This document shows, piece after piece, positions 8,901 through 64,000 of a DNA stretch of 64,000 nt. Made by a program: the position numbers and the translations under genes. Position 1 is the stretch's first letter. Each line of letters starts with the position of its first letter. This DNA is from Thermoanaerobaculia bacterium (lineage in GTDB: Bacteria; Acidobacteriota; Thermoanaerobaculia; Gp7-AA8), in NCBI GenBank assembly GCA_035546335.1, contig DATKDP010000056.1:120577-184576 (forward strand). The letters are read 5' to 3'. The notes under the pieces are model-generated. The model was not told the DNA's origin. It saw only the letters and a program-made list of their open reading frames with translations, and ran no database searches.

Positions 8901-8914
8901 GATCACCTCCGGAT

Positions 8915-14771: not shown

Positions 14772-14826
14772 GGGGCGGTTCAGGTCGTCGCGGCCGCCTT
14801 CGCGGGCATGCCTGTAGAATTATGTC

Positions 14827-38662: not shown

Positions 38663-39133
38663 TTACTTGTGGTAGCGAATGTTCCGCATCAGCGTACACG
38701 CCCGATAAATCTGCTCGATCAGGACCAGCCTCGCAATCTGATGCGGCAGCGTCATCGCCGAAAGGGAAAGGATCCTGTCGGCACGGCTTCGTATTGCATC
38801 ATCGAGGCCGACATCGCCGCCCATGACGAAGTGGATTCCATCCGGACTCTGCGACGAGATCCTTTCGAGCCACTTCGCGAATTTCAAAGAATCGATCGAC
38901 TCCCCCCGCTCGTCCACGACCACGGTAATGCCGCGCGCTGGGATCGCTGCAATCAGCCTTGCCGAATCGGCGCGTATGATAGCGGCATCCTTCTTTTTCT
39001 GTCTATCTTTTTCGGCTGCAACTTCAATGATCTCGATCGGAAAGAATCGCCCGATCCGCTCCCTGTACCGCTCGATCGCCGCGCCGAGCTGAGCGTCAGC
39101 ATTGGAACCGATCCAAATCAGGCGAAATTTCAT
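38663..39133 (-). CDS. rlmH: 23S rRNA (pseudouridine1915-N3)-methyltransferase
   Basis: SPOUT fold, 156 aa, MKFRLIWIG...GGDVGLD...LSLSAMTLPHQIARLVLIEQIYRA. Confidence 0.85.
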   Translation of the reverse strand: MKFRLIWIGSNADAQLGAAIERYRERIGRFFPIEIIEVAAEKDRQKKKDAAIIRADSARLIAAIPARGITVVVDERGESIDSLKFAKWLERISSQSPDGIHFVMGGDVGLDDAIRSRADRILSLSAMTLPHQIARLVLIEQIYRACTLMRNIRYHK

Positions 39134-39211: not shown

Positions 39212-40166
39212 TCAGCCGAGCCCGTAACGCTTTCGCTTCTCCAGCAGCGTCTTTCGGTTGATCCCCAGCAGCTCCGCTGCCCGTGTGTAGTTCCCACGCG
39301 TGCGGCGCATCACCTCCCGAATGTACCTCAGCTCCAGCTCCTCGAGGCTCCAGCGTTCTTCTGCCGCCGCGGAGACCAGCTCCGGTGCGCTGATCAGATC
39401 GAACGGCAGTGAGGCGAGCGAGATCGACGGTCCTGTCTCCAGCAGCACCGCGCGCTGAACGACGTTGCGGAGCTCGCGCAGGTTCCCGGGCCATGAATGG
39501 CTCCGCAGCAGATCGAGAGCATCCTCGGAAAAACCGCTGATCCTCCGCCCTGCCTCGCGGGCCGCCTCACGAAGAAAGAGGCGTGCGAGCTGCGGAATGT
39601 CTGCGCGGCGAGCGCGCAGCGGCGGAATCTCGACCGTGACGACGTTGAGCCGGTAAAAGAGATCCTTCCGCAGCTCACTGCCATCCGCGAGACGGGCAGG
39701 CGGAACGCTCGTCGACGCGATGACGCGGATGTCGACTTCGATCGGCCGGCTCCCGCCGATCCGGCTGATGCTCCGCTCCTGCAGGACGCGAAGTAGCTTC
39801 GCCTGGAGCGGGGAGGGAAGGGCCGTTACCTCATCGATGTAGAGTGTCCCTCCTCCCGCCAGCTCGATCCTCCCGATCTTCCGTCCATAGGCTCCGGTGA
39901 AGGCTCCCTTCTCGTGTCCGAAAAGCTCGCTCTCGAACAGATCGGGCGGGACGGCCGGACAATCGATCCGTACCAGCTGGCACTCGCTTCGCGGGCCGCA
40001 GCGGTGAATCACATCGGCCAGATGATCTTTCCCGCTGCCAGTTTCTCCCACCAGCAGAACGTTCACGTCGTGCGCGGCGATCTTCTCCACCGTCTCGACC
40101 AAAGAGCGCATCGCAGCGCTCCTCGTCGGCAGCAGCTTCCGCAAGACCGCCTGGCTACCTCTCATG
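39212..40166 (-). CDS. sigma-54 activator (AAA+ plus HTH) with no receiver or sensor domain (PspF-like)
   Basis: LLVGETGSGKDHLADVIH, GAFTGA, GNLRELRNVV, C-terminal HTH. Starts directly with the AAA+ domain. Confidence 0.8.
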
Positions 40167-40550
40167 TCTCTGCAGCTTCTCGTCCGGCAGGTACTCCCCG
40201 GTGACGTTGGGTGCGTCACCCCACAGTCTCTCCAGTCCGTAGAAACGCCGGCAATCCTCGGTAAAAATGTGGACGATGAGGTCGCCGTAGTCGAGGAGAA
40301 CCCATCGGCCGGGCGTGATACCTTCCACCAGCAGCGGTTTCACTCCGTCCAGCTCGCGCAACTTCGTTTCGATCTCCTCGGCGATCGCCTGGGTCTGGCG
40401 CTCGGTCGTTCCCGAGCAGATGACGAAGTAGTCACCGATCGACGTGAGCTTGCCGACTGAGAGGACGTCGAGAGCGATTGCCTTCTTGTCGAGCGCGGCC
40501 TCGACGGCGTGTGCCACGCGCTGCTGAGTCCGATCCATCATCATCACCAT
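40155..40550 (-). CDS. rsfS: ribosome silencing factor RsfS (Iojap)
   Basis: DYFVICSGTTERQTQAIAEEIE...WVLLDYGDLIVHIF. Confidence 0.85.
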   Translation of the reverse strand: MVMMMDRTQQRVAHAVEAALDKKAIALDVLSVGKLTSIGDYFVICSGTTERQTQAIAEEIETKLRELDGVKPLLVEGITPGRWVLLDYGDLIVHIFTEDCRRFYGLERLWGDAPNVTGEYLPDEKLQRHER

Positions 40551-40565
40551 CCAACAGACAATCGA

Positions 40566-41201
40566 TCATGCATAAAGACCGAGCCGGCGAATATAGCGTG
40601 CGACTCGGGGATGAACGAGCGTCTCGATGCTCTCCTTCGCTCCAATGCGACGTCGAATCTCGCTCGCCGAGACGGCGATGACCTCGTTCTCGGCGAATAC
40701 GATGGCGCCGGCCCCCTCCCGGCGAGCCGGCGGGAGAACGCGATCGCGGAGCTCGGGCGGCACCAGATCCGGCGAAGGATGGCGAGCGAGAACGACGAAA
40801 TTCGCCAGCTCGAGGATTCGGTCGATCGTTTTCCATCGAAGCAGCGCAGCGAGATTGTCATCGCCGATCACCCATTCGAGCGCCGTTCCGGGATTTTGCC
40901 GGCGGAGCTCCTCGAGTGTGTCGACGGAATACGACACTTCGCCTCGCTCCAGCTCCAGCGGAGACACCTCGATTCTCGGATCGTGCTCCGTGGCGAGCAC
41001 CGCCATGGCAAAGCGGTGATACGAAGAGGCCGCCGGTCGATCGTGCTTGAACGGCTGCCGGAGCGCCGGCAGCACGATGATCCGCGACCACCTCATACGG
41101 GGAAACGCATCGAGAAGCGGCAGCAAGTGACCGTTGTGGAACGGATCGAACGTTCCTCCGCAGATCGCGATCCGATCGAGTCTCGTCTCGTTCGTCATCA
41201 C
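40566..41201 (-). CDS. nadD: nicotinate-nucleotide adenylyltransferase
   Basis: IAICGGTFDPFHNGHL (H/TxGH motif). Confidence 0.85.
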   Translation of the reverse strand: MMTNETRLDRIAICGGTFDPFHNGHLLPLLDAFPRMRWSRIIVLPALRQPFKHDRPAASSYHRFAMAVLATEHDPRIEVSPLELERGEVSYSVDTLEELRRQNPGTALEWVIGDDNLAALLRWKTIDRILELANFVVLARHPSPDLVPPELRDRVLPPARREGAGAIVFAENEVIAVSASEIRRRIGAKESIETLVHPRVARYIRRLGLYA

Positions 41202-41209
41202 CGCCGGCC

Positions 41210-42235
41210 CTACGCGTCGGCAACCGGGATCTCCTCCCCCTGCGAGCGAACGGCATCGACCATCGCCGCGAGCCGGTGTACCAACTGCTGAACGCCGTCC
41301 CCGGCAACCGCCGAAATCTCATGATACTGGAAGCCGTGCTCCAGGGCGTATCTTCGAAGATCATCGGATGCTCCCGGAAATGCCGCGTCGAGCTTCGATC
41401 CGCAGATCAGGCGCGGTTTTCGCGACAGCTCTTCGGAATAGAGAGCGAGCTCACGCGCGATCATCGCGGCATCTTCCGACGTGCCGGCATGCTCGGACAG
41501 ATCGACCAGCTGCACCAGCGCTGCGCACCGCTCGACATGGCGCAGAAAACGATCCCCCAGCCCCTGCCCCTCGTGCGCACCCTCGATCAGTCCCGGGATG
41601 TCGGCGACGACGAGTGTTCGGTCTCCGTCGACATCGACGACTCCGAGATTCGGAACCAGCGTGGTGAAGGGGTAGTCGGCAATCTTCGGCCGGGCTGCGC
41701 TGATCACCGAGATCAGCGTCGACTTCCCGGCGTTCGGCAGGCCGATCAGGCCGATGTCGGCGATCAGCTTCAACTCGATGAACAGCTCGCGCTCCTCCCC
41801 CGCTTCGCCCGTTTGGGCGAACCGGGGCGCCTGCCGCGTCGCAGTCGCAAAATGCTGGTTCCCCAGTCCACCGCGACCACCCTTCACCACCTGAACCGTG
41901 TCGCCGTCTTTCATCAGCTCGGCGACCAGCTCGCCGCTTTGTTTGTCGCGAACGACCGAGCCGATCGGAAGCTCGATCGTGACGTCCGCGCCCGCCGCTC
42001 CGGAACAGTTCGACCCCATGCCGTGCTGCCCGCGCCCCCCTTTCCACTCCCTGCGGAACTGAAGGTGATAGAGCGTGTTGAGCCGCTGCGACGCTCGAAC
42101 GAAAATCGAACCTCCAGCCCCACCATCACCTCCGGAAGGCCCACCTCGCGGAACGAATTTCTCGCGACGGAATGCCACGCATCCATTCCCGCCGTCGCCT
42201 GCCTTGACTCGAATCGAAGCCTGGTCGATGAACAT
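41210..42235 (-). CDS. obg: GTPase Obg/CgtA
   Basis: MFIDQASIRVKAGDGGNGCVAFRREKFVPRGGPSGGDGG..., GLPNAGKST G1 motif. Confidence 0.9.
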   Translation of the reverse strand: MFIDQASIRVKAGDGGNGCVAFRREKFVPRGGPSGGDGGAGGSIFVRASQRLNTLYHLQFRREWKGGRGQHGMGSNCSGAAGADVTIELPIGSVVRDKQSGELVAELMKDGDTVQVVKGGRGGLGNQHFATATRQAPRFAQTGEAGEERELFIELKLIADIGLIGLPNAGKSTLISVISAARPKIADYPFTTLVPNLGVVDVDGDRTLVVADIPGLIEGAHEGQGLGDRFLRHVERCAALVQLVDLSEHAGTSEDAAMIARELALYSEELSRKPRLICGSKLDAAFPGASDDLRRYALEHGFQYHEISAVAGDGVQQLVHRLAAMVDAVRSQGEEIPVADA

Positions 42236-43137: not shown

Positions 43138-44688
43138 TCAGAGCGGTATATTGCCGTGTTTCTTCGGAGGATTCCGATCGCGCTTGTTGCGCAGCATGGC
43201 AAAGGCGGTGATCAGCTTTCTGCGTGTGAAGCGAGGCTCGATGATCTCGTCGATGTATCCCCGCTCGGCGGCGATGAAGGGATTGGCGAACTTCTCCGTA
43301 TATTCGGCGATCTTTTCCGCACGCGCCGCCGATGGATCCGCCTCACTCTCGATCTCCCGGCGATAGAGGACGTTCACCGCCCCTTCCGCCCCCATGACCG
43401 CGATCTCCGCCGTCGGGTAGGCGAAGTTCACGTCGGCTCGGATGTGCTTCGAGTTCATCACGCAATAGGCTCCGCCGTACGCTTTCCGCGTGATCAGCGT
43501 GACCTTCGGAACCGTGGCTTCCGCCAGGGCATAGAGCAGCTTCGCTCCGTGAACGATGATCCCGCCATGTTCCTGGTCCATCCCCGGAAGGAACCCGGGG
43601 ACGTCCTCGAGCACGAGCAGCGGAATGTTGAAGGCATCACAGAAACGAACGAAGCGCGCTCCCTTGCGCGAAGCATCGATGTCGAGGACGCCGGCGAGGA
43701 ACGACGGCTGATTCGCAACGATACCAATCGGTGCCCCGTCGAGCCGGATGAAGCCGACGACGAGATTGCGGGCGAAATGCTCGTGCACCTCGAGAAAATG
43801 GCCACGATCGGCGATGGTTCGCACCAGATCGCGGATCTCGTAGGGCTGATTCGCACTGTCGGGAACGAACGTGTCGAGTGCCGGATCGATCCGATCGATG
43901 TCGTCCGTCGATGCGATCCGCGGTGGATCGTCGAGATTGTTCGATGGCATGAAGGATAGGAGCTCCCGAATCGTCGCCAGACAGTCTTCGTCCGACTCTG
44001 CGGCGAAGTGCGCGACTCCCGACACCTGGTTGTGCGTCTCGGCTCCGCCCAGCGCCTCCTTGGTCACCTCTTCGTGCGTGACCGTTCGAATCACGTCGGG
44101 TCCGGTCACGAACATGTAGCTCGTCTTCCTGACCATCAGAATGAAGTCGGTGATCGCCGGCGAGTAGACCGCGCCGCCGGCACAGGGCCCCATGATCGCG
44201 GAGATCTGTGGAATCACCCCCGAGGCGAGCGTATTGCGAAGAAAGATGTCGGCGTATCCTCCGAGCGAGACCACGCCTTCCTGAATGCGTGCACCACCCG
44301 AATCGTTGAGACCGACGATCGGCGCTCCATTCTTCAGTGCGAGGTCCATGATCTTGACGATCTTGGCTGCATGCGTCTCGCTGAGTGAGCCGCCGAAGAC
44401 GGTGAAATCCTGCGCGAAGGCGTAGACGAGGCGACCCTCGATCGTCCCGTAGCCGGCGATCACGCCATCACCCGGGATCTTCTGCTGGTCCAATCCGAAG
44501 TCGCGCGAGCGGTGAACCACCAGCTGGTCGAGCTCCTGGAACGAGCCGTCGTCGAACAGCAGGGAGATCCGCTCGCGAGCAGTCAGCTTCCCTTCGGAGT
44601 GCTGCCGTTCGATTCTCGGCTCGCCGCCTCCCAGCTCGGAAGCCCTTCGGCGACGCTCGAGCTCCTCCATCTTCTGCTCGATCGACAA
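43138..44688 (-). CDS. pccB: acyl-CoA carboxylase carboxyltransferase subunit (propionyl-CoA carboxylase beta chain family)
   Basis: [41 protein letters not shown]... with both CT subdomains. Confidence 0.9.
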
Positions 44689-52168: not shown

Positions 52169-54223
52169 ATGACCGGAATGACGATATCGCCTATCGCTGC
52201 CCTCACCGGAAACGCCGTCGGGGCGTTCGTCATCGCGCTGCTGTTTCTCGCGTTCCTCTTCCGTTATCGGGGAGCCTACCTTCGACCGTGGGCCTTCTTC
52301 TGGATCGCAACGACACTTCATCACGCAGCGAGCGCCCTGACCCTGCACCTGCGCGCGTCGAGCCAGTCTGGAGCGGTCCTGGCGGGTTGCGCTGCGGGAG
52401 CATTCGGCTGGGCGGCGCTCGGATGGCTGCTGCTCGGCTGCCACGAGCTCGCCTTCCGGCGGCCGGCGCGACCCCTGCCGCGATCGATCCTGGTTCCCGC
52501 TCTCGCGGCAACGGGCGCGGTCGCAGGCGCACTGCTGCTGCTCATGACGAGCCGCAACGAGCCGTTTCTCTCGCTTTCGACCCAGGGTCCCATCGCCGCC
52601 GTGGTCGCCATCCTGGCCGCACGCTGGTTGTGGCGCGAGGGTGGACGGCGCAACCTTCTCGGATTCAACCTGATGGTGGTCGCCCTGGCGGTCTATGCAG
52701 CCGTTCAGATGCATGCCACCAGCGTCGTGGTGGAGCTGATGACCGGCGGGAGCTCGTGGAGACTCGGACTGCTGGTTCCCTTCCTCGACTTTTACCTTCA
52801 GGCCATGCTTGCGGTCGGGATGGCGTCGTCGATTCTGGAAGACGAGCGCGAGACCGCGCGACTGGCGACGATCGCGATCGAGCGGCTCGCCTATCATGAC
52901 GCCCTGACCGGACTGCCCAACCGTCCTCTCTTCATGGACCGGCTGATCATGGCTACGGCCCTGGCCGAGCGTACGAAACAACAGATCGCCGTCTTCTTTC
53001 TCGACCTCGACCGCTTCAAGGACATCAATGACTCTCTCGGGCACACCGCGGGAGACATGCTGCTCAAAGGGGTGGCCGAGCGGATTCGCGGCTGCGTGCG
53101 CCAGTCGGACACTCTGGCACGCTTCGGAGGCGACGAGTTCACGATTCTCGTTCAGAGGCTCGAGAAGGTGGAGTATGCAGCGAAGGTCGCGCAGAAGATT
53201 CTCGAAGTCATCCGGATCCCTTTTCTGATCGGCGAGCGCGAGCTGTTCGTGACCACGAGCATCGGCATCAGCATCTACCCTCATGACGGACTCGATGCCG
53301 AGACGCTGGTCAAGCATGCCGACATCGCGATGTATCGCGCGAAGGAGCGCGGCCGCGACGACTATGAGCTCTACACCGCGGCGATGAATCAGCACGCGCT
53401 CGAGAGAATCGCCCTGGAGGGAATGCTTCGAAAAGCGATCGGCAGCGACGAGCTCATCCTCCATTACCAGCCGATCATCGACCTCCACACGCATCGATTG
53501 GTGTCGGTCGAAGCGCTCATCCGGTGGAACCACCCCACGCTCGGGCTGATCGCGCCCGCGCATTTCATCTCCGTCGCCGAGCTCTCCGGCCTGATCATTC
53601 CGATCGGCAAATGGGTCCTCAGCGAAGCGTGCCGCCAGGCACGCGCCTGGAAGGGGAAGACGGGAAGGGACATCCGCGTTTCGATCAATCTCTCCGCCAG
53701 GCAGTTCCAGCAGACGGACCTGCTCACGATGGTGCGGACCACCCTCGAACGGACCGGACTCGAGCCGCATCTTCTGGAGATCGAGATCACCGAAAGCAGC
53801 GCCATGTCGAACGCCGATCTGGCGATCCGGACACTACTCGATCTCAAATCGCTCGGCGTGCGGATCGCCATGGATGATTTCGGCACCGGCTACTCCTCGC
53901 TCAGCTATCTCAAACGCTTCCCGATCGACTGTCTGAAGCTCGATCAGTCCTTCGTCCGTGACATCGTCACCGACGAAGGCGACGCGGCGATCATCGGCGC
54001 GGTCGTGGCCATGGCGCACATCCTGGGGATCGAAGTCGTCGCCGAGGGGGTGGAGACGGAGGAGCAGTTTCGACTGCTGGCAGCGAAGTCGTGCGATCGG
54101 ATTCAGGGATTTCTCTTCAGCCATCCCCTCCCGGCCGAACGGCTCGAGCAGCTCCTGCTCGCCGATCCCACCTGGTTTCTTCCCTCGGCTTCAGCCGAGC
54201 GCGTCCGATCGATCGAAACGTGA
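52169..54223 (+). CDS. membrane-anchored diguanylate cyclase/phosphodiesterase (multi-TM sensor plus GGDEF plus EAL)
   Basis: About 8 N-terminal TM helices. ARFGGDEF (intact GGDEF). EALIRW and downstream EAL-domain motifs (DDFGTGYSSLSYL, QGFLF). Confidence 0.85.
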   Translation: MTGMTISPIAALTGNAVGAFVIALLFLAFLFRYRGAYLRPWAFFWIATTLHHAASALTLHLRASSQSGAVLAGCAAGAFGWAALGWLLLGCHELAFRRPARPLPRSILVPALAATGAVAGALLLLMTSRNEPFLSLSTQGPIAAVVAILAARWLWREGGRRNLLGFNLMVVALAVYAAVQMHATSVVVELMTGGSSWRLGLLVPFLDFYLQAMLAVGMASSILEDERETARLATIAIERLAYHDALTGLPNRPLFMDRLIMATALAERTKQQIAVFFLDLDRFKDINDSLGHTAGDMLLKGVAERIRGCVRQSDTLARFGGDEFTILVQRLEKVEYAAKVAQKILEVIRIPFLIGERELFVTTSIGISIYPHDGLDAETLVKHADIAMYRAKERGRDDYELYTAAMNQHALERIALEGMLRKAIGSDELILHYQPIIDLHTHRLVSVEALIRWNHPTLGLIAPAHFISVAELSGLIIPIGKWVLSEACRQARAWKGKTGRDIRVSINLSARQFQQTDLLTMVRTTLERTGLEPHLLEIEITESSAMSNADLAIRTLLDLKSLGVRIAMDDFGTGYSSLSYLKRFPIDCLKLDQSFVRDIVTDEGDAAIIGAVVAMAHILGIEVVAEGVETEEQFRLLAAKSCDRIQGFLFSHPLPAERLEQLLLADPTWFLPSASAERVRSIET

Positions 54224-54292: not shown

Positions 54293-56380
54293 CTAGGCGT
54301 GCTCGGCTTCGTGCGGCTTCTTCGATTCGGCGATGATCTTTTCCTGAAGATTCCTCGGCACTTCCTCGTAATGTGAGAACTCCATGTGGAACGAGCCGCG
54401 ACCCTGCGTGATCGAGCGAAGCGCCGAGCCGTAAGCCAGCATCTCCGCCATCGGCACGTGGGCCTTGATGACCTGCGTGTCGCCTTCGATGTCGATCCCG
54501 TCCATTCTTCCCCGCCGGGAGGTGAGATCTCCCATCAGGTCGCCGATGTACTCGCTGGGGGCATAGACCACGACGTTCATGATCGGCTCGAGAAGAGTGG
54601 GCTTTGCATTGGCCATCGCGTCTTTGAAGGCGAGAGCCCCGGCGATCTTGAAGGCCAGCTCGGACGAGTCGACCGGATGGAACTGGCCGTCGACCAATCG
54701 GATGCGGAAGTCCACCACCGGATAGCCGGCGAGATATCCCTGTATCCGGGCATCCTGAATCCCCTTCTCGACCGCAGGGATGTATTGGCGGGGAATCGAT
54801 CCGCCGAAGATGTCGTCGACGAACTCGAACTCGGCACCGCGCTCGAGCGGCTCCATTCTGATCTTGCAATCGGCGAACTGCCCGTGCCCGCCGGTCTGTT
54901 TCTTGTGGCGCCCATGCGCATCCGTCGCGCGGGTGATGGTCTCGCGATAGGGGACCTTCGGTGGATGGAGGATGACGTCCACGCCGTATTTTTTCTTGAG
55001 CTTTCCGACGGCGACCTCGACGTGCAGCTGCCCCTGTCCCGAGATCAGCATCTCCTTGGTCTGTTCGTCGCGACCGAATCGGATGGCGGGGTCCTCCTCC
55101 ATCACTCGGGCCAGTGCCGTGGAGATTTTGTCCTCGTCGCCTTTGGATTTCGGCTCGAGCGCGAAGGCGATCGCCGATTCGGGGTAGGCGATGTGATCGA
55201 GCTGGACAACGTGATCGCGCGCGCAAATCGTGTCGCCGGTTCGCGTGTCCTTCAGCTTGGCCACCGCTCCGATGTCTCCCGCCCGAAGCTCGGACACGGG
55301 AACCTGCTGCTTGCCCTGCAGCAGCTGCAGCTTGCCGACCCGCTCTTCGTGATCGCGGCTGCTGTTCCAGTACGCCGAGTCCGATTTCACGGTTCCCGAG
55401 AAAACGCGGAATGCCGAAACGCGGCCGGCGAACGGATCCGAGGTGGTCTTGAAGACGAGCGCCGCCGGAAACGCCTCGGCCCGTCGCTCGATCCGCATCT
55501 CCTCGCCGTTCTTTCCTTTGCCGGCAACCTCGCCTTCGACCGGTGAGGGAAGGAGCGTGACGAACGCATCGAGCAGAGCATGACCCCCGATGTTGTGCGA
55601 CGAAGAGTCGAACAGGAGAGGAAAGACGGCCCGCGCCGCGATCTCGCGCCGCAGCCCCTCCACCAGTTCCTCCTGCGAAAGCCCCCCCTCCTCGAAGAAG
55701 CGCTCCATCAGGGTGTCGTCTCCCTCCGCCACTTTCTCGATCAGTTTCTCCCTCCACTCCTCCGCGGTCGCCCTCAGCTCGGCAGGGACCTCGATGTCCT
55801 CGTATTTTCCCGAGCCGTCTGTGTCGTAGCGGAACGCTCTCATCGAGAGGAGATCGACGACGCCGTGAAAATCCTTCTCTTCGCCCATCGGAAGCTGGAT
55901 CGGAACGACGTTCCTGCCGAACTTCCTCTGCAGCGAGTCGATCGTCCTCTGGGCCGATGCGCGTTCACGATCCATCTTGTTGGACACGATGATCGAGGGG
56001 AGCCCCATCTCCTCGGCGAATTTCCAGACTTTCTCGGTCGTGACTTCGACGCCGGTGACCCCGCTGACGACCACGGCGGCAGCATCGGCCACGCGCATGC
56101 CGCTCCTGGCCTCGGTCAGAAAGATGCCGAATCCCGGCGTGTCGATGAGGTTGATCTTCTTTTCCTTCCACTCAGCGAACGCGACCGCAGCCGAGATCGA
56201 GTGTTTTCGCTCGATCTCATCGGCGTCGAAGTCGGTCACCGTGGTACCGTCATCGATGCTGCCAAGGCGCGTAACCGCCCCTGAATTGAACAATAACTGG
56301 GCGACGAGGGTCGTCTTCCCCGTGTCGTTGTGCCCCACCACGGCGATGTTTCGAATCTCGGGTCCCGAATAAACCTTCAT
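54293..56380 (-). CDS. fusA: elongation factor G paralog (standalone, not in str operon)
   Basis: MKVYSGPEIRNIAVVGHNDTGKTTLVAQLL (G1), DTPGF, all five EF-G domains. GAGGAG RBS. Confidence 0.85.
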   Translation of the reverse strand: MKVYSGPEIRNIAVVGHNDTGKTTLVAQLLFNSGAVTRLGSIDDGTTVTDFDADEIERKHSISAAVAFAEWKEKKINLIDTPGFGIFLTEARSGMRVADAAAVVVSGVTGVEVTTEKVWKFAEEMGLPSIIVSNKMDRERASAQRTIDSLQRKFGRNVVPIQLPMGEEKDFHGVVDLLSMRAFRYDTDGSGKYEDIEVPAELRATAEEWREKLIEKVAEGDDTLMERFFEEGGLSQEELVEGLRREIAARAVFPLLFDSSSHNIGGHALLDAFVTLLPSPVEGEVAGKGKNGEEMRIERRAEAFPAALVFKTTSDPFAGRVSAFRVFSGTVKSDSAYWNSSRDHEERVGKLQLLQGKQQVPVSELRAGDIGAVAKLKDTRTGDTICARDHVVQLDHIAYPESAIAFALEPKSKGDEDKISTALARVMEEDPAIRFGRDEQTKEMLISGQGQLHVEVAVGKLKKKYGVDVILHPPKVPYRETITRATDAHGRHKKQTGGHGQFADCKIRMEPLERGAEFEFVDDIFGGSIPRQYIPAVEKGIQDARIQGYLAGYPVVDFRIRLVDGQFHPVDSSELAFKIAGALAFKDAMANAKPTLLEPIMNVVVYAPSEYIGDLMGDLTSRRGRMDGIDIEGDTQVIKAHVPMAEMLAYGSALRSITQGRGSFHMEFSHYEEVPRNLQEKIIAESKKPHEAEHA

Positions 56381-56619
56381 GCGTGTCTCCTCGAAGGGAT
56401 GTAACAATTCACGGTCCGAACGCGAATCATAATTTAAAATGGAGTCAGGTTCCCACGACATCCGGAAGGATCGGATGCACCGAGCGGTTTCCTGAGGACG
56501 AGCAGGGAGTATATCATTGCGCTTCGACATGCCGTGGCGGGCGAGCTCGACGGATGGCATGAGCAGAGGGATACGAGAATGCGACCAGCGATGTGGTTGA
56601 CGGATGGAGGATCTCGACG

Positions 56620-58644
56620 TTGAAGCTCGCCCGATACGAAGTAGTTCGCGAGCTCGGCAAAGGCGCGATGGGAATCGTCTATCTCGCCAAGGATCCGCTC
56701 ATCGGCCGGCTCGTCGCTCTCAAGACCATACGCCCTGCAACCGGCGATGACGACGAGGCGAAGGAATTCCAGGAGCGTTTCGTTCGCGAGGCGCAGGCAG
56801 CCGGGATTCTCAGTCACTCCGCCATCGTCACCGTTCACGACATCGGACAGGATCCCGAATCCGGCGTCTCTTTCATCGCCATGGAGTACATCGAGGGATC
56901 GAACCTGAAGGAGGTCCTCCAGCAGGGGACTCCGTTCGATCATTTCCAGGTCGCCGAGGTCGTCTCTCAGGTGGCTGACGCGATCGACTATGCCCATTCG
57001 AAGGGAATCATTCATCGCGACGTCAAACCGGCGAACATCATTCTCTGCGGCGAAGCGCGCGCGAAGATCACCGATTTCGGCATCGCCAAGATCGCCTCGG
57101 GGGTGAGCAATCTCACGACGACGGGGCAGTTCCTCGGAACGCCGAACTACATGGCGCCGGAACAGATCAAGGGAACGAAAATCGACGGACGAACCGACAT
57201 CTTCTCGCTGGGCATCGTTTTCTACGAAGCTCTGTCACGCCGCAAGCCGTTCGGCGGCGACTCCCTCACTACGATCTCCTACAAGATCGTTCATGAGCCT
57301 TTCCCTCCCCTTCGCGACATCGATCCGTCGATTCCCGAAGGCTTCGAAGAGATCATCGGCCGGTGCCTCGCGAAGGATCCCGCCGATCGCTATCAACGAG
57401 CGCGCGAGCTGGCAAACGACATCCGGGCCATCGTTCGAGGCGAAGCGCTCGAACGGCAGGTCGATTCTTCGGCATTCGAAGAAACGGTGATGAGCCACGA
57501 TGGCGAAAAGATCCCGACGATGGAGATTCCATTCCCCGAGGCGGACTCCGAAGCCACGGCCATCGGCAGTGAAGGAAGGCTGGAATCGAGTGCAACGCGG
57601 GCACGACGCGCCGCAGCCGGTGCGACTGCCGCAACAGCAGCACCGGTAGCTGCCGCTACACCTGCCGCGCGCACGGCTCGCCGCGCCCCCAGCGCCATCG
57701 CACGGCCCGCCGCCGCACAGCTCCGTCAATTGATCACCTCGAAGATCTCCGCTCCGGTCTTCTTCGGGATCATCGCGATCATTCTGATCCCGCTCACCAT
57801 CGGGGTGATCGCGATCAAGCAGGGGGAGGTTCCGGTCCCCGAGGTCGACGAGCAGCGCGCGGCTGTGGTGGCGAGACAGCGTCTGCTCCGGCAGCAGGGA
57901 ACGGCTCACTTGCGCCGAGGCAATGTGGAAGCGGCCTACGCCTCCTTCCAGGAGCTTCACAAGATCGCTCCGAAATCGCCGATGGTGATCAATGTTCTCG
58001 GCAAGCTCGACGAGATCCGCATCCAGGACATGACCCAGCAGCAACGACTCGGTCAGGCGAAGACGATCTTCGACGAAGGGCGTCTGCTCTACGACGAGCG
58101 CAACTACGAAGATGCCATTCCCCTCTTCGAGGAGGCGTTTCATCTCGATCCGAACCTCAACGAAGCGGTCAACTACCTGAAGATGAGCCGCGAACAGCTC
58201 GCAGTCCAGGCCAGAAGCACCGAGCGCGCAGAAACACGAGCGGAGCTCGCGCGGGTCACCGAGCAGGGCAGCCAGAGCTCTGCGCAACCGAACGGGCAGA
58301 CGACTTCACAGCCCGCCAGACAGCAGCCGGCTACACTCGTCACCTCGTTCAAGGGAACGGTCAACGACGGTTACATTCTGGTGAAGGTCAACGGCGAGAC
58401 CATCGTCTACGAGAACCTTTCCGAAGAGCCGAAGGGCTTCCTTCGCCGTCGCGTCCCGCGCGACATCGCCAAGAGGAGCGAGGTCCCCTCCGGGCGCGTC
58501 GAGATCGAAGTGTGGGTCGTCGTCCAGAGACTGGGAATCCAGGAACAGCGCAAGCTGCAGGAGACGCTCCAGCCGGGAAGCGTGCGAAGCCTGATCGTCA
58601 CGCTCGACCCGGGCAGCAAACGGCTCACGCTCACGCTCTCGTAG
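56620..58644 (+). CDS. Hanks-type serine/threonine protein kinase with one TM segment and extracytoplasmic TPR-like/C-terminal domain
   Basis: [66 protein letters not shown] start after GGAGGA is proposed; the long ORF begins at 56593. Confidence 0.8.
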
Positions 58645-58729
58645 CGAGCCCGCCGCTTGTCGCCCGCTGTCGTGCTCGAACCATCTCCGCGGGCTGACCG
58701 ACGCCGCTTTCGAGCATTCGAGGAGGACC

Positions 58730-59242
58730 ATGGACACCGGGGCCATCAACTTCAAGCAGTGGATCGAGGAGTACCGGCATCTTCTCCAACCGCCGGTTGG
58801 AAACAAGAAGGTCTTCGACAGCGACGAGTTGATCGTCATGGTCGTCGGCGGTCCGAACAGTCGCAAGGATTACCACATCGACGAAGGTCCCGAGTTCTTC
58901 TATCAGCTCGAAGGGGAGATGCTCCTCAAGACCATCCAGGATGGAAACGTCGTCGACATCCCGATTCGCAGCGGAGAGATCTTCCTGCTGCCGCCGCGCG
59001 TACCTCACTCGCCGCAACGCTTCCCGAATTCCGTCGGCCTGGTCATCGAGCGCAAGCGCCTCGAGAACGAGCTCGACGGCCTTCAGTGGTATTGCGACAA
59101 CTGTACGAACCTGCTCTATGAGGAGTTTTTTCCGCTGAAGAACATCGAGAAAGACTTTCCTCCGGTGTTCGACCGCTTTTTCGGCAACATCGAGCATCGC
59201 ACCTGCGACCGATGCGGAACGGTGATGCCGCCACCGAAGTGA
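58730..59242 (+). CDS. 3-hydroxyanthranilate 3,4-dioxygenase (cupin) with C-terminal rubredoxin-like Cys4 site
   Basis: [32 protein letters not shown]...[11 protein letters not shown]...WYCDNC...CDRCG. Confidence 0.85.
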
Positions 59243-59265
59243 GCCGCACTGGCTCGATTCTCAAC

Positions 59266-60294
59266 GTGCTCAAGATCGACATCCACACTCACATCCTGCC
59301 GGAGCGGTGGCCCGACCTGGCCGGCAGATACGGCTACGGCGGATTCGTGGCTCTCGAACATCATCGTCCCGGAAAGGCTCGGATGATGATCGACGACACC
59401 TGCTTCCGCGAGATCGGAAGCAACTGCTGGGACCCGGAGGTCCGCCTCGCGGAATGCGACCGTGAAGGAGTCGACGTCCAGGTTCTTTCGACCGTTCCCG
59501 TCATGTTCAGCTACTGGGCGAAGGCGCAGGATGCACTCGATCTCGCGCGGATGCTCAACGATCACATCGCCGGAGTCGTGCACGATCACCCGAAGCGCTT
59601 CGCCGGCCTCGCTACGCTGCCGATGCAGGATGCCGATCTCGCGGTCCGCGAGCTCGAGCGCGCCGTCCGCGAGCTCGGCCTCGCTGGCGTGCAGATCGGC
59701 ACGAACGTCAACGGAACGAATCTCGACGCGCCTGAGCTCTTCCCGGTTTTCGAGGCCGCATCCGATCTGGATGTGGCGATCTTCGTCCACCCCTGGGAAG
59801 TGGTCGGTCGCGAGCGCATGGCGAAGTACTGGCTTCCGTGGCTCGTCGGGATGCCGGCGGAGACCTCGCTGGCGATCTGCTCACTGATCTTCGGCGGAGT
59901 CCTCGAACGGCTTCCCCGGCTGCGCATCGCCTTCGCGCACGGTGGAGGCGCCTTTCCCACGACCATAGGGCGCATTGCACGCGGCTTCGAAGCGCGTCCC
60001 GATCTCTGCGCCGTCGACAACGAGGTCGACCCGCGCGAATATCTCACCAGAATCTACGTCGACTCTCTTTCACACGATCCGCGGATCCTCTGCTACATGG
60101 TCGATGCCATGGGCGCAGACCGAATCGCCCTCGGAACCGACTATCCGTTCCCCCTGGGAGAGCGTCATCCCGGCGAGATCGTCGATTCCTGCGGCTTCGA
60201 TGAACCGACCGTCGCACGTCTGTTTCATGGTACGGCCCTCGAGTGGCTCGGAATGGAGCGGGAGCAGTTCGTCCCCGACGGCGGTTCGAGATGA
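59266..60294 (+). CDS. 2-amino-3-carboxymuconate-6-semialdehyde decarboxylase (amidohydrolase-2 family)
   Basis: [11 protein letters not shown] ... HPW ... FAHGGGAFP ... [13 protein letters not shown] start at 59266 (the ATG at 59212 is the alternative). Confidence 0.8.
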
Positions 60295-61595
60295 CGATCC
60301 GGCCCGACTTCACCCGTGGGATCGACAGGGCGCTCGAGCTCGATCGAGCCGATCCACTCGCCTCGTTTCGAGATGAATTTCACATTCCCGGACGAAGCGA
60401 CGGCAAAGATGAGATCTACCTCGCTGGTAACTCCCTCGGGCTTCAACCGAAACGAACCGCGGCCCACATCGAACAGGAGCTCTCCGACTGGCGCCATCTC
60501 GCGGTCAAGGGACACCTCGAGGCGCGCAGCCCATGGCTTCCCTACCATGAATTCCTGGCCGAGCCGATGGCGGCAATCGTCGGAGGACTGCCGGTGGAAG
60601 TCGTCACGATGAACTCGCTGACGGCGAACCTCCACTTTCTGCTGGTCAGCTTCTACCGGCCGACTGCTTCGCGGCATCGCATCCTGATGGAGGATCGCGC
60701 ATTCCCCTCCGATCATTACGCCGCGACCTCGCAGATCCTTTTTCATGGCTACGATCCCGCCGCATCGCTTCTGCTGGTCAGACCTCGTGAGGGAGAGGAG
60801 GCCATCCGAAGAGACGATCTGCTCGAGCTGATCGAGCGCGAAGGGGAGTCGATCGCGCTGATCCTCCTTCCGGGCGTTCAGTACTACACCGGCCAGGCAT
60901 TCGACATGGAAGCGATCGCCGCAGCAGGGCGGGCGAAAGGATGCGTGATCGGCTTCGATCTTGCCCATGCCGCCGGGAACCTCCTTGTCCGGCTTCACGA
61001 CTGGAATGTCGACTTCGCGTGCTGGTGCACCTACAAGTATCTCAACTCCGGACCGGGCTCGACGGGCGGGGCGTTCGTGCACGAGCGCCACGCGAAGCGA
61101 TTCGACCTGCCGCGGTTCGGGGGGTGGTGGGGGCACGACAAGAGCACGCGATTCCTGATGGGACCTGAGTTCCGCCCGATGGCGGGAGCCGAGGGGTGGC
61201 AGGTGAGCAACCCGCCGATTCTTTCGCTTGCTGCGATTCGCGCGTCGCTGGAGGTGTTCACCGAGGCGGGTGGAATGGAGCCGCTGCGCGAGAAATCGGC
61301 CCGGCTGACCGGGTATCTCGAACAGCTCCTTCGCTCCATGCCCGGCGGTTCGGTGTCGATCCTGACGCCGTCGAATTCAGAGGAGCGTGGATGCCAGTTG
61401 TCGCTGACGGTCGGGCATCCTGAAAGATCGGGAAGGGAGGTGTTCGAGCGTCTGGAGGCGGGAGGGGTTGCCTGTGACTGGCGCGAGCCGAACGTGATTC
61501 GCGTCGCGCCGGCGCCGCTGTACAACAGCTTCACCGATGTCTATCGATTCGCCGACATTCTGGGAAGAGAGCTCGGCCTTCATGACACGCGATGA
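60291..61595 (+). CDS. kynU: kynureninase
   Basis: ATGA overlap with the upstream stop. [13 protein letters not shown]..., PLP-lysine region [13 protein letters not shown]. Confidence 0.85.
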
Positions 61596-62931
61596 TTCGC
61601 GAGACGTGACGCTCATCGGCGCCGGACTGGCCGGCTCCCTTCTCGCGATCTATCTCGCCAGGCGCGGTTTCGAGGTCGCCATCTTCGAGCGTCGCCCCGA
61701 CCTTCGCAGAGTGAACATCGCCGCCGGACGCTCGATCAATCTGGCGCTGGCGAATCGCGGCATCCATGCACTTCGCGAAGTGGGGCTGATGGATCGGATC
61801 GAGCCACTGCTCATTCCGATGGCCGGGCGAATGCTCCACGACGAAGCCGGAAATCTCCAGTTCCTTCCTTACGGCAGCAGGCCGGAAGAAGTGATCTATT
61901 CCGTTTCGCGGGGAGCACTCAACGGAATCATGATGGATGCCGCGGAGGCGGGAGGAGTCACGATTCATTTTCTTCACAATTGTCGTGAGGTCGATTTCGA
62001 GCAGCGCGAGGTGACGGCCATCATCGATGACGGCCGCGCCCGACGATTTCCCTATCGCACGCTGATCGGTACCGACGGGAGCGCCTCCGCTGTTCGCGAC
62101 GCGGTCATGCGTGCGACCGGAGGAGAATCGCGCGAGGAGCCTCTCGAGCACAGCTACAAGGAGCTGTCGATTCCACCCTCTCCGGATGGCGGATTTCGCA
62201 TCGAGCGGAACGCGCTTCACATCTGGCCGCGGGGGGAGTTCATGCTCATCGCCCTCCCGAACATCGACGGCAGCTTCACGGTGACGCTCTTTCTGCCGAA
62301 TGAAGGTCCCGAGAGCTTCGCCTCACTCACCACCGCAGAGGCCGTGCTCTCTTTCTTCGAGCGGCGGTTCGCCGATGCCGTTCCCCTTCTCCCCGATCTG
62401 ACGGAGGCATTCTTCGAAAATCCCACCGGACACCTCAGCACGATACGCTGCTGGCCGTGGCACTATCGCGATCAGGCGGTCCTTCTCGGCGACGCTGCGC
62501 ACGCGATCGTCCCCTTCCACGGTCAGGGAATGAACTGCGCATTCGAGGACTGCAGTGAGCTGAATGCCTGTCTCGATTCGTCCGATGGAACGTGGGAGCC
62601 CGTCTTCGCCGAGCTCGCACGGCGGCGCAAGCCGAACGCCGAAGCGATCGCCGACATGGCACTCGAAAATTACGTCGAGATGCGAAGCTCGGTGCGCGAT
62701 CCGAAGTTTCAACTTTGGAAGGAGGCCGCCTTCCGGCTCGAGGAGCGCCAGCCGGGACGGTTCATTCCGCGCTACTCGATGGTCATGTTTCATTCGATCC
62801 CCTATGCCGAGGCAAAACGACGCGGCGCGATCCAGGACGAGATTCTCGAGGAGCTGACTCGCGAGACGGCGACCGCGGCCGAGGTCGACTACGAGAAGGC
62901 CGATCGCCTGATCGCCTCCCGGCTCGGGTAG
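61582..62931 (+). CDS. kmo: kynurenine 3-monooxygenase (FAD)
   Basis: VTLIGAGLAGSLLAIYLARRGFEVAIFERR (FAD Rossmann), GDAAHAIVPFHGQGMNCAFED. Start overlaps the kynU 3' end by 14 nt. Confidence 0.85.
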   Translation: MTRDDSRDVTLIGAGLAGSLLAIYLARRGFEVAIFERRPDLRRVNIAAGRSINLALANRGIHALREVGLMDRIEPLLIPMAGRMLHDEAGNLQFLPYGSRPEEVIYSVSRGALNGIMMDAAEAGGVTIHFLHNCREVDFEQREVTAIIDDGRARRFPYRTLIGTDGSASAVRDAVMRATGGESREEPLEHSYKELSIPPSPDGGFRIERNALHIWPRGEFMLIALPNIDGSFTVTLFLPNEGPESFASLTTAEAVLSFFERRFADAVPLLPDLTEAFFENPTGHLSTIRCWPWHYRDQAVLLGDAAHAIVPFHGQGMNCAFEDCSELNACLDSSDGTWEPVFAELARRRKPNAEAIADMALENYVEMRSSVRDPKFQLWKEAAFRLEERQPGRFIPRYSMVMFHSIPYAEAKRRGAIQDEILEELTRETATAAEVDYEKADRLIASRLG

Positions 62932-62990
62932 GGACGCTTTCAACCTGCGCTCCTGGGCGCTGGTCTGTCACAGTTGCCGGACTCGCGAGG

Positions 62991-63029
62991 GGCGGCGGGA
63001 CGCCGCCTCGATCGGGCGAGGACGCCCGA
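62991..63029. terminator. pair of short GC hairpins (GGCGGCG-gga-CGCCGCC; TCGGGCG-agga-CGCCCGA) between convergent kmo and DAO genes
   Basis: Lies in the 134-bp gap between the two stop codons. Variant of the conserved hairpin family. Confidence 0.35.
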
Positions 63030-63065
63030 CCCCCTCGGACGCGGGCATCCTCTCCGCGTGACTCT

Positions 63066-64000
63066 CTACGCCTTCGCCAACTCCACCACTTCGGCGGCGC
63101 ATCCCCAGGAGAGGGTGAATCCCGCGCCGCCGTGCCCGTAGTTGTGGATGACCTTGCAGCCGTCGCCCAGCATTTCGGATTCGAGCCGGACTTCCGAGCG
63201 CCCCGGGCGCAGCCCGACCGCCGCTCCGAGGATCTCGGCCCGCTCGAGCCCGGGCTCGAGCTGCATACAGCGGCGGACGATGTCGCGAGAGACCTCCTCG
63301 TCGGGCTCCAGTTCCCAGACATCCCGTTCCGCAGTTCCGCCGAGAATGCAATCGTCCGACCGCGGCACGACGTAGGCGAGGGAGAGGTGGCCGAAATCGT
63401 CGGCGATCGCCCGCCGCAATCCCGGATTCGTCGTCCTGACCACCTGACCCCTGATCGGATGAACGTCGGAATCGCGACTCAGATCTCGCGCTCCCAGGCC
63501 GCTGCAGTTGATGATCAGGCCAGCGGGAGCGGCCACGTCCTGAAGGTCCGCGAGCCCTCCTTCGATCATAGTGATCGTGCCGCCGAGCTCAGCGAACCGT
63601 CGCATCAGGAACGGCAGATACCGAGGCGTCTCGATCAGCGGAACCGTTGCGACGAGCCCATCACGATATCCATGCGGCAGCTCAGCGGCGGCGAGTCGCC
63701 GGAGCCCGATGACGCTCCCCATCCAGTCCGGATCATTCGCCGGCTCGTCGAAGAGCTCGATCATCTCCACCATGGAGATTCCACTGTCCGGTGTCTCCGC
63801 CAGCTCGGCGAAGATCTCGTAAGAGTGTCGCGCCCATCGAGTGACACGATCTGCCGGATAGGCGAGGTACGGAAACCAGATCGCCGCCGCACGGTCGGAG
63901 GTGGTGTTCGGGGGTACCTCTCTGGTGACGATCGAAACATCGAGACCCGCCTCTTGGAGCGCGACGGCCGATGTGAGACCGGAAACACCCGAGCCGATCA
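63066..64000 (-). CDS. D-amino-acid oxidase family FAD oxidoreductase (N-terminus beyond window end)
   Basis: The frame is continuous to the window edge. N-terminal part reads ...IGSGVSGLTSAVALQEAGLDVSIV... (GxGxxG). C-terminus HNYGHGGAGFTLSWGCA is the DAO signature. Confidence 0.8.
   Translation of the reverse strand, partial: IGSGVSGLTSAVALQEAGLDVSIVTREVPPNTTSDRAAAIWFPYLAYPADRVTRWARHSYEIFAELAETPDSGISMVEMIELFDEPANDPDWMGSVIGLRRLAAAELPHGYRDGLVATVPLIETPRYLPFLMRRFAELGGTITMIEGGLADLQDVAAPAGLIINCSGLGARDLSRDSDVHPIRGQVVRTTNPGLRRAIADDFGHLSLAYVVPRSDDCILGGTAERDVWELEPDEEVSRDIVRRCMQLEPGLERAEILGAAVGLRPGRSEVRLESEMLGDGCKVIHNYGHGGAGFTLSWGCAAEVVELAKA

Follow-up and report, generated by a model that had tools for sequence, protein, structure and literature searches.

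Tryptophan catabolism in Burkholderia cenocepacia J2315 reportedly follows the kynurenine/2-aminomuconate pathway, which Colabroy and Begley are said to have worked out in 2005, and a bacterial de novo route from tryptophan to NAD was reportedly described by Kurnasov et al. in 2003. Animals combine the ACMS decarboxylase (ACMSD) with NAD synthesis through the kynurenine pathway. The J2315 pathway is cited in a passage of preprint 10.64898/2026.06.05.730449, and the distribution of the bacterial NAD route from tryptophan is covered in PMC4217691. We analyzed a 64-kb stretch of DNA (hereafter the window) from a metagenome-assembled genome (MAG) of Thermoanaerobaculia (Acidobacteriota) that carries the four enzymes leading from kynurenine to 2-aminomuconate semialdehyde. 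This four-gene set is already known from many bacterial phyla and is not rare; what is new here is a Thermoanaerobaculia example of a documented pathway.

Four coupled kynurenine-pathway genes

Four coupled open reading frames lie on the same strand of the window between positions 58730 and 62931 (+) and encode, in this order, 3-hydroxyanthranilate 3,4-dioxygenase (HAAO), ACMSD (NCBI HVT44036.1), kynureninase and kynurenine 3-monooxygenase (KMO). The features of the locus are:

58720..58727, + strand: Shine-Dalgarno-like GAGGAGGA, 3 nt upstream of HAAO, the first operon gene; read from the sequence
58730..59242, + strand: HAAO/NbaC, 170 aa; NCBIfam, Pfam 3-HAO and PDB matches
59212..60294 (longest open reading frame), + strand: ACMSD; homology-supported start GTG 59266, 342 aa; Pfam and PDB matches
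60291..61595, + strand: kynureninase, 434 aa, of the animal-like type predicted to prefer 3-hydroxykynurenine; TIGR01814 and PDB matches
61582..62931, + strand: KMO, 449 aa; PDB and Pfam FAD_binding_3 matches
62932..63065, no strand: convergent spacer of 134 nt from the KMO stop to the stop of the D-amino-acid oxidase (DAO) gene, with two short G+C-rich hairpins
63066..64000 (runs past the window), - strand: DAO-family flavoprotein, 311 aa, a neighbour outside the kynurenine system; PDB matches and motifs

The first-pass annotation described tightly coupled genes with overlapping starts and stops, and for two junctions this is certain: the ACMSD stop and the kynureninase start share an ATGA, and the end of kynureninase and the beginning of KMO have 14 nt in common. 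The HAAO/ACMSD junction depends on the ACMSD start chosen and overlaps under only two of the three candidates, all of which end at 60294. ATG 59212, the start chosen by NCBI and Logan, gives a 31-nt overlap with HAAO and GTG 59239 a GTGA overlap, whereas GTG 59266, the start most favoured by homologues, leaves a 23-nt gap after HAAO. Neither sigma-70-like promoters nor intrinsic terminators were found between 58300 and 64000, and so the operon structure, and with it the probable co-transcription of the four genes, is read from gene spacing alone. The operon leader folded no better than shuffled sequence, nor did the convergent spacer (z-score -1.17), and the window contained no Rfam or tRNA match. 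As GC3-based gene calling at 62% G+C did not separate real from shadow frames, candidate open reading frames were judged by Pfam scans. Horizontal transfer, judged by composition, was rejected because the G+C content of the cluster equals that of the remaining contig.

Identity and active sites of the encoded enzymes

The family assignments of the four kynurenine enzymes are secure, ACMSD being a predicted ACMS decarboxylase, and the catalytic residues examined in the cluster are all conserved. HAAO exceeded the cut-offs of two NCBIfam equivalogs (NF009763, 257.3 bits against 220; TIGR03037, 241.8 bits against 145.95) and matched Pfam 3-HAO with 222 bits and the PDB structures 2qnk and 1yfu with 174 and 169 bits, respectively. 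Compared with 2qnk, it keeps YHID, the E before FFYQ, and PHSPQR, which we take for the iron-binding His/Glu/His set and the Arg that contacts the substrate; two CxxC pairs are readable at its C-terminus. ACMSD matched Pfam Amidohydro_2 with 151 bits, human ACMSD (2wm1/4ofc) with 466 bits and 59% identity, and Pseudomonas fluorescens ACMSD (2hbv) with 235 bits, whereas the other decarboxylases of the superfamily (LigW, gamma-resorcylate decarboxylase, IDCase) reached at most 99 bits. Its motifs DIHTH, FVHPW, FAHGGG, GTDYPF, F-R-E and G-R-I align with human His6/8, His174, His224, Asp291, Arg47 and Arg235, presumably the Zn ligands (HxH, His and Asp), the catalytic His and two substrate-binding Arg, and the equivalent of human Trp188 is conserved in the alignment as well.

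Kynureninase scored 451.5 bits with TIGR01814 (cut-off 246.4) and 448-454 bits with 3e9k, 2hzp and 7s3v (53% identity to 3e9k), against 172 bits with 1qz9. Its PLP lysine lies in YKYLN, and it keeps the residues that correspond to human His102, Ser332 and Asn333; these residues would favour 3-hydroxykynurenine, which fits a route in which KMO acts first. KMO matched Pfam FAD_binding_3 and, over residues 17-440 with the C-terminal domain included, bacterial KMO structures (5x6p, 5fn0, 6fox) with 392-395 bits, compared with 285-303 bits for mammalian KMO, 206 bits for yeast KMO and only 56 bits for the next family; no NCBIfam equivalog scored above its cut-off, the best being VioC with 186 bits against 760.

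These assignments bear on the 2-nitrobenzoate role that the first-pass annotation had offered. HAAO matches the NCBIfam model anthran_nbaC and ACMSD corresponds to the NbaD activity; both activities are shared with the nba cluster of P. fluorescens KU-7 (NbaC/NbaD, 2hbv), as a cluster for nba-type degradation of 2-nitrobenzoate/3-hydroxyanthranilate would have them. However, 2-nitrobenzoate degradation needs neither KMO nor kynureninase, and the nba cluster has neither and carries nbaE-J; nitroreductase, mutase and nbaE-J-type genes were not found in the window. Furthermore, the window ACMSD is animal-like, being 59-61% identical to the human enzyme and only 42% to that of P. fluorescens. We therefore hold such a role to be most improbable.

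Proposed route and search for the missing genes

We think it fairly probable that the locus is the conserved core of aerobic tryptophan/kynurenine catabolism of the animal and B. cenocepacia type, with the missing genes located elsewhere. The four genes, as one operon, would then provide a four-step route from L-kynurenine to 2-aminomuconate-6-semialdehyde: KMO would hydroxylate kynurenine with NADPH and O2, the animal-type kynureninase would convert 3-hydroxykynurenine to 3-hydroxyanthranilate and alanine, HAAO would open the ring with O2 to yield ACMS, and ACMSD would take the carboxyl group off ACMS ahead of its cyclisation to quinolinate. Some ACMS may leak to quinolinate for NAD. That ACMSD diverts ACMS from quinolinate, as claimed at first pass, is sound both in its biochemical logic and in the gene calls behind it. 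The genes for entry into the route (tryptophan dioxygenase, formamidase) and for exit from it (aminomuconate-semialdehyde dehydrogenase, AMSDH, and 2-aminomuconate deaminase) would lie in other parts of the genome. The O2 requirement of KMO and of HAAO points to an organism that meets oxygen; an Fe/Mn superoxide dismutase domain found in the window by Pfam scan would fit an oxygen-exposed organism.

The sequence covered was the 64-kb window, which includes 58 kb upstream of the operon, and ~1.4 kb beyond the window end. Pfam and tblastn searches gave no Aldedh or RidA match for AMSDH or 2-aminomuconate deaminase in the window or in the ~1.4 kb downstream, and over the same span tryptophan dioxygenase and formamidase were not found (Pfam; tblastn with TDO and KynB queries). 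The absence of kynA, kynB and downstream nbaE/F-type genes from the window, stated in the first-pass annotation, is thus borne out over the whole 64 kb; the search for the dehydrogenase or deaminase that it proposed beyond the window end gave neither in the ~1.4 kb recovered there. No nadA, nadB or nadC was present within 58 kb upstream or ~1.4 kb downstream of the operon, and the window does encode nadD (NaMN adenylyltransferase; TIGR00482, 154 bits).

ACMSD in related kynurenine clusters

We compared the locus with 80 GTDB loci and 80 JGI metagenome loci, which together with L089-L091 make 163 clusters. The same kynurenine core recurs across the 160 related loci in many phyla; no related KMO gene exceeded 62% identity in the GTDB scan or 65% in the JGI scan. 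Fifty-six GTDB loci had HAAO close to KMO, and of these, 42/46 ACMSD-positive versus 1/10 ACMSD-negative clusters encoded in cis both a RidA-type deaminase and an aldehyde dehydrogenase of the AMSDH type (Fisher p ~9e-7, for loci that are not phylogenetically independent). The JGI loci followed the same pattern, and in the pooled sets the two genes were present in 72 of the 85 clusters with ACMSD and in 2 of the 15 without. ACMSD-free clusters (e.g. L033, L042, L057, L081) have the layout HAAO-KynB-KYNU-KMO, the one expected for NAD synthesis, and look NAD-directed. Across the 160 loci, its co-occurrence with AMSDH and deaminase therefore makes ACMSD a good indicator of the catabolic type of bacterial kynurenine cluster. 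This rule, of more practical value than the locus, can be used by annotators (ACMSD with AMSDH and deaminase, catabolic; ACMSD-free, apparently NAD-directed).

The window is a stripped core and one of the few exceptions to this rule. A contiguous HAAO-ACMSD-KYNU-KMO core occurs in seven other loci (L041, L047-L049, L089-L091), six of which carry AMSDH and a RidA-type deaminase directly upstream of it; L091, the closest cluster (64-75% identity per protein), has a deaminase and tryptophan dioxygenase and no AMSDH. With adequate flanking sequence, both downstream genes were absent in cis only from GTDB loci L007 and L079; JGI loci L098, L125 and L151 also lack both, each with less than 1 kb of upstream sequence. 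Other Acidobacteriota loci have the full catabolic set in cis (AMSDH-AMD-HAAO-ACMSD-KMO-KYNU); in some of them, the stretch between ACMSD and KMO weakly matches tryptophan dioxygenase. The degradative role proposed at first pass is upheld as a general rule by the GTDB counts given above; for the locus itself, which is without AMSDH, deaminase, tryptophan dioxygenase and formamidase, it is no more than probable.

One alternative is that de novo NAD synthesis is the main purpose of the cluster: ACMS would turn spontaneously into quinolinate, NadC would convert this to NaMN, and ACMSD would only limit quinolinate, the part it plays in the liver and kidney of mammals. The locus lacks the downstream catabolic genes found together with ACMSD in ~85-90% of other clusters, neither nadA nor nadB lies in the 64 kb, and the nadD gene of the window implies that the host makes NAD through NaMN. 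Yet nadD is universal and uninformative on the source of NaMN, and the window is without nadC. The clusters that look purely NAD-directed are without ACMSD in 9/10 GTDB and 4/5 JGI cases, and most of the ACMS would be lost to a decarboxylase whose translation is coupled to that of HAAO. On balance we find a mainly NAD-directed role rather unlikely.

The pathway might also stop at the semialdehyde and yield picolinate, a metal chelator, or serve to detoxify kynurenine/3-hydroxyanthranilate. Where AMSDH is lacking, 2-aminomuconate semialdehyde turns into picolinate by spontaneous cyclisation; according to a passage of PMC10143591, compounds that HAO, ACMSD and AMSDH use or produce cyclise spontaneously to quinolinic or picolinic acid. 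AMSDH and deaminase are not in cis here, a layout shared with a minority of genomes (L007, L079). However, their absence from 64 kb of a genome of probably several Mb is weak evidence, the operon has no transporter, regulator or metal-related gene attached, and the complete catabolic set stands in cis at other Acidobacteriota loci, and we judge this outcome unlikely. It is similarly improbable that ACMSD has been kept in a genome devoid of AMSDH and deaminase, there to regulate quinolinate/NAD flux as it does in mammals or to serve a dedicated picolinate route; if true, this would be an undescribed bacterial use of the pathway. The catabolic core, completed by genes elsewhere, remains our preferred reading.

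The convergent DAO-family gene

Facing the operon, a gene on the - strand extends from 63066 to beyond 64000, and all of it except the GTG start codon lies inside the window (complete protein, P0121; upstream genes, on L083). As the first-pass annotation had it, this is a real DAO-family gene, with 181 bits to D-aspartate oxidase (6rkf) and 158 bits to D-amino-acid oxidase (DAAO; 2du8). In the 6rkf alignment, the positions of human D-aspartate oxidase Arg216 and Arg237 (numbering derived by us), which presumably bind the acidic side chain, are both Ala; an identity as D-aspartate oxidase was rejected because these acidic-substrate arginines are missing. Its IGSGVSGL, GLRPGR and YGHGGAG correspond to the DAO-family motifs GxGxxG, GxRPxR and YGHGGxG (PMC9844085). 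The DAOs of Rubrobacter xylanophilus, Streptomyces coelicolor and Arthrobacter protophormiae likewise have ~310-325 aa with GxRPxR and YGHGGxG (PMC9844085), and a Rubrobacteraceae homologue (P0216) is 52% identical to the window protein. Characterised bacterial DAOs all belong to one phylum, printed 'Acinetobacteria' and taken here as Actinobacteria (PMC9844085), whereas the host of this DAO is an Acidobacteriota MAG. To call the gene unusual in bacteria was nevertheless an overstatement: 7589/8000 scored database candidates had E<=1e-20, and the named top matches are bacterial.

The first-pass annotation further saw a possible link between this gene and the cluster. A DAO acting with the kynurenine enzymes would turn D-tryptophan or D-kynurenine into keto acids (e.g. 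kynurenate) or feed the pathway; the DAO and KMO stop codons lie 134 nt from each other, and mammalian DAAO oxidises D-kynurenine (PMC12249069). However, the gene is convergent and begins only 20 nt after a PII-like gene, downstream of an SbtA-like transporter gene, which places it in a different transcription unit as the predicted last gene of a separate sbtA-like/PII-like/DAO operon. The 10 kb around KMO in the 80 GTDB loci, the 80 JGI loci and L089-L091 contain no DAO homologue (0/163 clusters), no kynurenine-pathway gene is near any of four DAO homologues of 55-57% identity (0/4), and a literature search for a bacterial DAO-kynurenine link returned only mammalian D-kynurenine work. We accordingly give the link hardly any credence.

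Comparison with known systems

The bacterial NAD route has KMO, kynureninase and HAAO in common with the window, and differs in that the window has ACMSD and is without a formamidase gene between HAAO and kynureninase. The B. cenocepacia pathway shares all four enzymes from kynurenine to the semialdehyde. Compared with that type, in which most related loci join the core to AMSDH and a RidA-type deaminase, the window holds the four-gene core only, without tryptophan dioxygenase, formamidase, AMSDH or deaminase in cis. The mammalian pathway is close at the level of the proteins: identity to the human enzymes is 59% for ACMSD and 53% for kynureninase, the core of HAAO matches 2qnk with 174 bits, and catalytic and specificity residues are identical. 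Unlike the mammalian system, the window has a bacterial operon, its HAAO consists of a single domain and a rubredoxin-like Cys4 tail, and its KMO is nearer to bacterial KMO structures (394 bits versus 285-303).

Organization of the predicted kynurenine operon and identity of its enzymes

The kynurenine genes of the window are four consecutive ORFs on the same strand (58730-62931, +), whose G+C content equals that of the contig:

58730-59242, +, HAAO (3-hydroxyanthranilate 3,4-dioxygenase); ATG at 58730, GAGGAGGA Shine-Dalgarno 3 nt upstream
end 60294, +, ACMSD (decarboxylase of ACMS, the 3-hydroxyanthranilate ring-opening product); possible starts ATG 59212, GTG 59239 and GTG 59266
start 60291, +, kynureninase (KYNU); ATG, ATGA overlap with the ACMSD stop codon
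start 61582, +, KMO (kynurenine 3-monooxygenase); ATG, 14 nt ahead of the kynureninase stop codon

The first-pass annotation described overlapping starts and stops, which holds for the junctions at 60291 and 61582, whereas the HAAO/ACMSD junction hinges on the start codon chosen: ATG 59212, the choice of the NCBI and Logan annotations, gives a 31-nt overlap, GTG 59239 a GTGA overlap with the HAAO stop codon, and GTG 59266 a 23-nt gap and an N-terminus (MLKIDIHTH) that agrees with homologues and human ACMSD. Given that scans of the operon region and window were negative for sigma-70-like promoters, intrinsic terminators, Rfam families and tRNAs, the operon is called from spacing and strand.

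HAAO scored above the cut-off of two NCBIfam equivalogs (257 and 242 bits), its iron ligands and substrate arginine are conserved in alignment with solved HAAOs, and its C-terminus carries the two CxxC pairs typical of bacterial HAAO. ACMSD, 100% identical to NCBI HVT44036.1 ('MAG TPA: Thermoanaerobaculia bacterium'), which is encoded on a contig of 226,849 bp, had no NCBIfam match and only the broad Amidohydro_2 match in Pfam. Among solved structures it scored 466 bits with human ACMSD and 235 bits with Pseudomonas fluorescens ACMSD, other decarboxylases of the superfamily reaching at most 99 bits, and alignment to the human enzyme (59% identity, 334 aligned residues) showed that all metal ligands and both substrate arginines are kept. 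Kynureninase matched TIGR01814 (451 bits) and the human enzyme (448-454 bits, 53% identity) versus 172 bits for the P. fluorescens enzyme. Its residues at the positions of human His102, Ser332 and Asn333, a set that favours 3-hydroxykynurenine, are conserved, as a route via KMO requires. KMO matched solved KMOs over its full length (bacterial 394 bits, mammalian 285-303 bits, yeast 206 bits), the next flavin monooxygenase scoring only 56 bits. All four gene calls, and with them the earlier observation of a kynurenine cluster, are correct.

KMO would convert kynurenine to 3-hydroxykynurenine, kynureninase would convert this to 3-hydroxyanthranilate, HAAO would yield ACMS and ACMSD aminomuconate semialdehyde, at which the unbroken four-enzyme chain would end. 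Most likely the operon is the core of a catabolic route, with the genes for the entry and exit enzymes at other sites of the genome, a reading that we regard as probable. According to PMC10143591, ACMS can cyclise non-enzymatically to quinolinate, and aminomuconate semialdehyde to picolinate.

Gene content of the window

About 55 further candidate ORFs throughout the window were scanned against Pfam, which recovered genes of housekeeping and envelope functions: proS, gltX, obg, rsfS, rlmH, TamB- and BamA-like proteins, M16 peptidases, leucine-catabolism genes, two sigma-54 activators, a GGDEF-EAL protein and an EF-G paralogue. Tryptophan dioxygenase, cyclase-type formamidase, aldehyde dehydrogenase, RidA (RidA-type 2-aminomuconate deaminase) and NadA/B/C were absent from these ORFs, and tblastn of the 64-kb window, using the copies of those proteins in related loci as queries, was negative, confirming that kynA and kynB are not in the window. 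The sole NAD gene was nadD, listed here with its neighbours and with the genes immediately upstream of the operon:

40566-41201, -, nadD (nicotinate-nucleotide adenylyltransferase; TIGR00482, 154 bits), in the usual obg-nadD-rsfS string
41210-42235, obg, flanking nadD
40155-40565, rsfS, flanking nadD
52169-54223, GGDEF-EAL protein, upstream of the operon
54293-56560, EF-G paralogue, strand opposite to the operon
56593-58644, Ser/Thr kinase with TPR repeats, ending 85 nt upstream of HAAO

That the operon supplies NAD, with ACMSD as a valve, is an alternative that we consider unlikely.

Several other features of the window were recorded. A sigma-54 activator (39212-40219) is interposed before rlmH (38663-39133). 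A kinase-TPR gene also lies near the closest related cluster (L091), which is probably a coincidence. At 13797-15597 a DUF5996 protein (479 bits) adjoins a D-Ala-D-Ala dipeptidase (Peptidase_M15), another D-amino-acid-related gene, which is unconnected to the kynurenine finding. The leucine-catabolism genes (23586-25084 and 43138-44688) comprise a biotinyl/BT domain of methylcrotonyl-CoA carboxylase, an HMG-CoA lyase-like gene and a separate carboxyltransferase (662 bits). An ORF at 8265-9344 (-) has a C-terminal domain of the Fe/Mn superoxide dismutase family, which together with the two O2-dependent enzymes of the operon (KMO and HAAO) points to an organism exposed to oxygen.

The D-amino-acid oxidase neighbour

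63066-63998, -, DAO (DAAO-family flavoprotein), convergent with the operon

DAO scored 181 bits with solved D-aspartate oxidase and 158 bits with DAAO. The full length is 311 residues, as given by an identical protein (P0121), and therefore the window end cuts only the GTG start codon. A 1.5-kb Logan contig (L083, 1-1457) continues the window minus strand beyond 64000 and places the DAO start 20 nt downstream of a 97-residue PII/SbtB-like gene, itself preceded by an SbtA-like transporter gene of which the contig has the 3' end (Pfam Sbt_1, 73 bits), indicating that DAO is the last gene of a separate convergent unit. This order sets a D-amino-acid oxidase behind an sbtA-sbtB-like pair, a puzzling combination.

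Members of the family are common among bacterial and metagenomic sequences (of 8000 candidates scored, 7589 matched at E<=1e-20), the named matches among those listed coming from Rhodothermaceae, Thermodesulfobacteriota and Rubrobacteraceae, while characterised bacterial D-amino-acid oxidases are few, just over 10 (PMC9844085). None of 160 related loci had a DAO homologue within 10 kb of KMO, nor did L089-L091, the loci with the ACMSDs most similar to that of the window, and no kynurenine genes lay near four DAO homologues (55-57% identity). The suggested link of DAO to the cluster is not supported, and a DAO-linked D-amino-acid route, for which the adjacency of the two units would speak, is highly improbable. 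Human D-aspartate oxidase binds acidic substrates through two arginines; in DAO alanines align to both, so a preference for neutral D-amino acids may be weakly inferred as the likelier specificity.

ACMSD and the genes of the downstream steps in related clusters

The comparative set comprised 160 loci from GTDB representatives and JGI metagenomes, in which the nearest KMOs were 62% and 65% identical, respectively. ACMSD was carried by 46 of the 56 GTDB loci having HAAO near KMO, and 42 of these 46 had an AMSDH-type (2-aminomuconate-semialdehyde dehydrogenase) aldehyde dehydrogenase, with 2-hydroxymuconic semialdehyde dehydrogenase as best NCBIfam match, and a RidA-family protein in cis, usually as [SDR]-AMSDH-RidA-HAAO-ACMSD-[cyclase-type formamidase]-KYNU-KMO. 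In contrast, 9 of 10 ACMSD-free loci lacked AMSDH and RidA and were ordered HAAO-formamidase-KYNU-KMO (Fisher p ~9e-7 over the 56 loci, indicative only because they share ancestry). JGI contigs followed the same pattern (AMSDH and RidA in 30/39 ACMSD-positive loci), several exceptions being truncated contigs. Since AMSDH and RidA mostly accompany ACMSD and are missing from most ACMSD-free loci, ACMSD is a good marker of the catabolic cluster version.

L089-L091 (ACMSD 72-74% identical to that of the window) share the contiguous overlapping HAAO-ACMSD-KYNU-KMO core, preceded by AMSDH and RidA in L089 and L090 and by tryptophan dioxygenase and RidA in L091. The window belongs to a small minority with ACMSD and without AMSDH and RidA in cis, clearly paralleled in GTDB by L007 and L079 only. 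The degradative role proposed earlier is a plausible interpretation for the window genome. A pathway ending in picolinate, the cyclisation product of aminomuconate semialdehyde, would suit this minority layout; we rate it as rather improbable.

Acidobacteriaceae/Terriglobales-type loci (L050-L082, L126-L170) are nearly complete and differently ordered (AMSDH-RidA-HAAO-ACMSD-KMO-KYNU), and in some of them a region between ACMSD and KMO weakly matches tryptophan dioxygenase (32-33% identity); their ACMSD is NbaD-like (40-44% identity). The ACMSD and kynureninase of animal-like type make up a large clade of bacterial sequences across many phyla; the phylogeny comprised a small neighbour-joining tree. 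An nba-type nitroaromatic route has very little probability for the window, whose ACMSD scored higher with the human enzyme than with that of P. fluorescens. Many of the Acidobacteriaceae/Terriglobales-type loci also carry a convergent alpha/beta-hydrolase (Pfam BD-FAE/Abhydrolase_3), which could be a eukaryote-type formamidase.

Two further genes recur in related clusters. Many of the clusters, of which those listed are examples, have a short-chain dehydrogenase (Pfam adh_short_C2) as the gene just ahead of AMSDH-RidA-HAAO-ACMSD, and in gammaproteobacterial clusters the KMO stop codon is overlapped by a 348-356-aa ORF, which had no confident Pfam/NCBIfam match and is possibly an unrecognised pathway component:

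L089 6782-7591, short-chain dehydrogenase
L016 389-1180, short-chain dehydrogenase
L009, L012, L022, L047-L049, L103, L105, L107, short-chain dehydrogenase
L089 13646-14692, 348-356-aa ORF
L009 11350-12420, 348-356-aa ORF
L090 13652-14707, 348-356-aa ORF

Clusters with the short-chain dehydrogenase had no accompanying 4-oxalocrotonate decarboxylase, hydratase or aldolase genes, and the enzyme is a candidate catalyst of the unassigned step that follows 2-aminomuconate there; a newly reported metazoan 2-aminomuconate reductase offers a comparison (10.64898/2026.06.05.730449). Separately, a 493-aa ACMSD (P0002; L002 10001-11482) contains a near-exact internal repeat of ~150 residues (ACQDLDMAIFVHPW...PGKLINGMPWSE present twice), the result of tandem duplication or else an artefact of assembly.

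Comparison with known pathways

Bacterial kynurenine clusters, both those that carry ACMSD and those that lack it, have been known for two decades, and the window locus adds one more member to this type. In Burkholderia cenocepacia, as described in 10.64898/2026.06.05.730449, the step after AMSDH is performed by a dedicated 2-aminomuconate deaminase, and the ACMSD-bearing clusters agree with this catabolic route of AMSDH followed by 2-aminomuconate deaminase.
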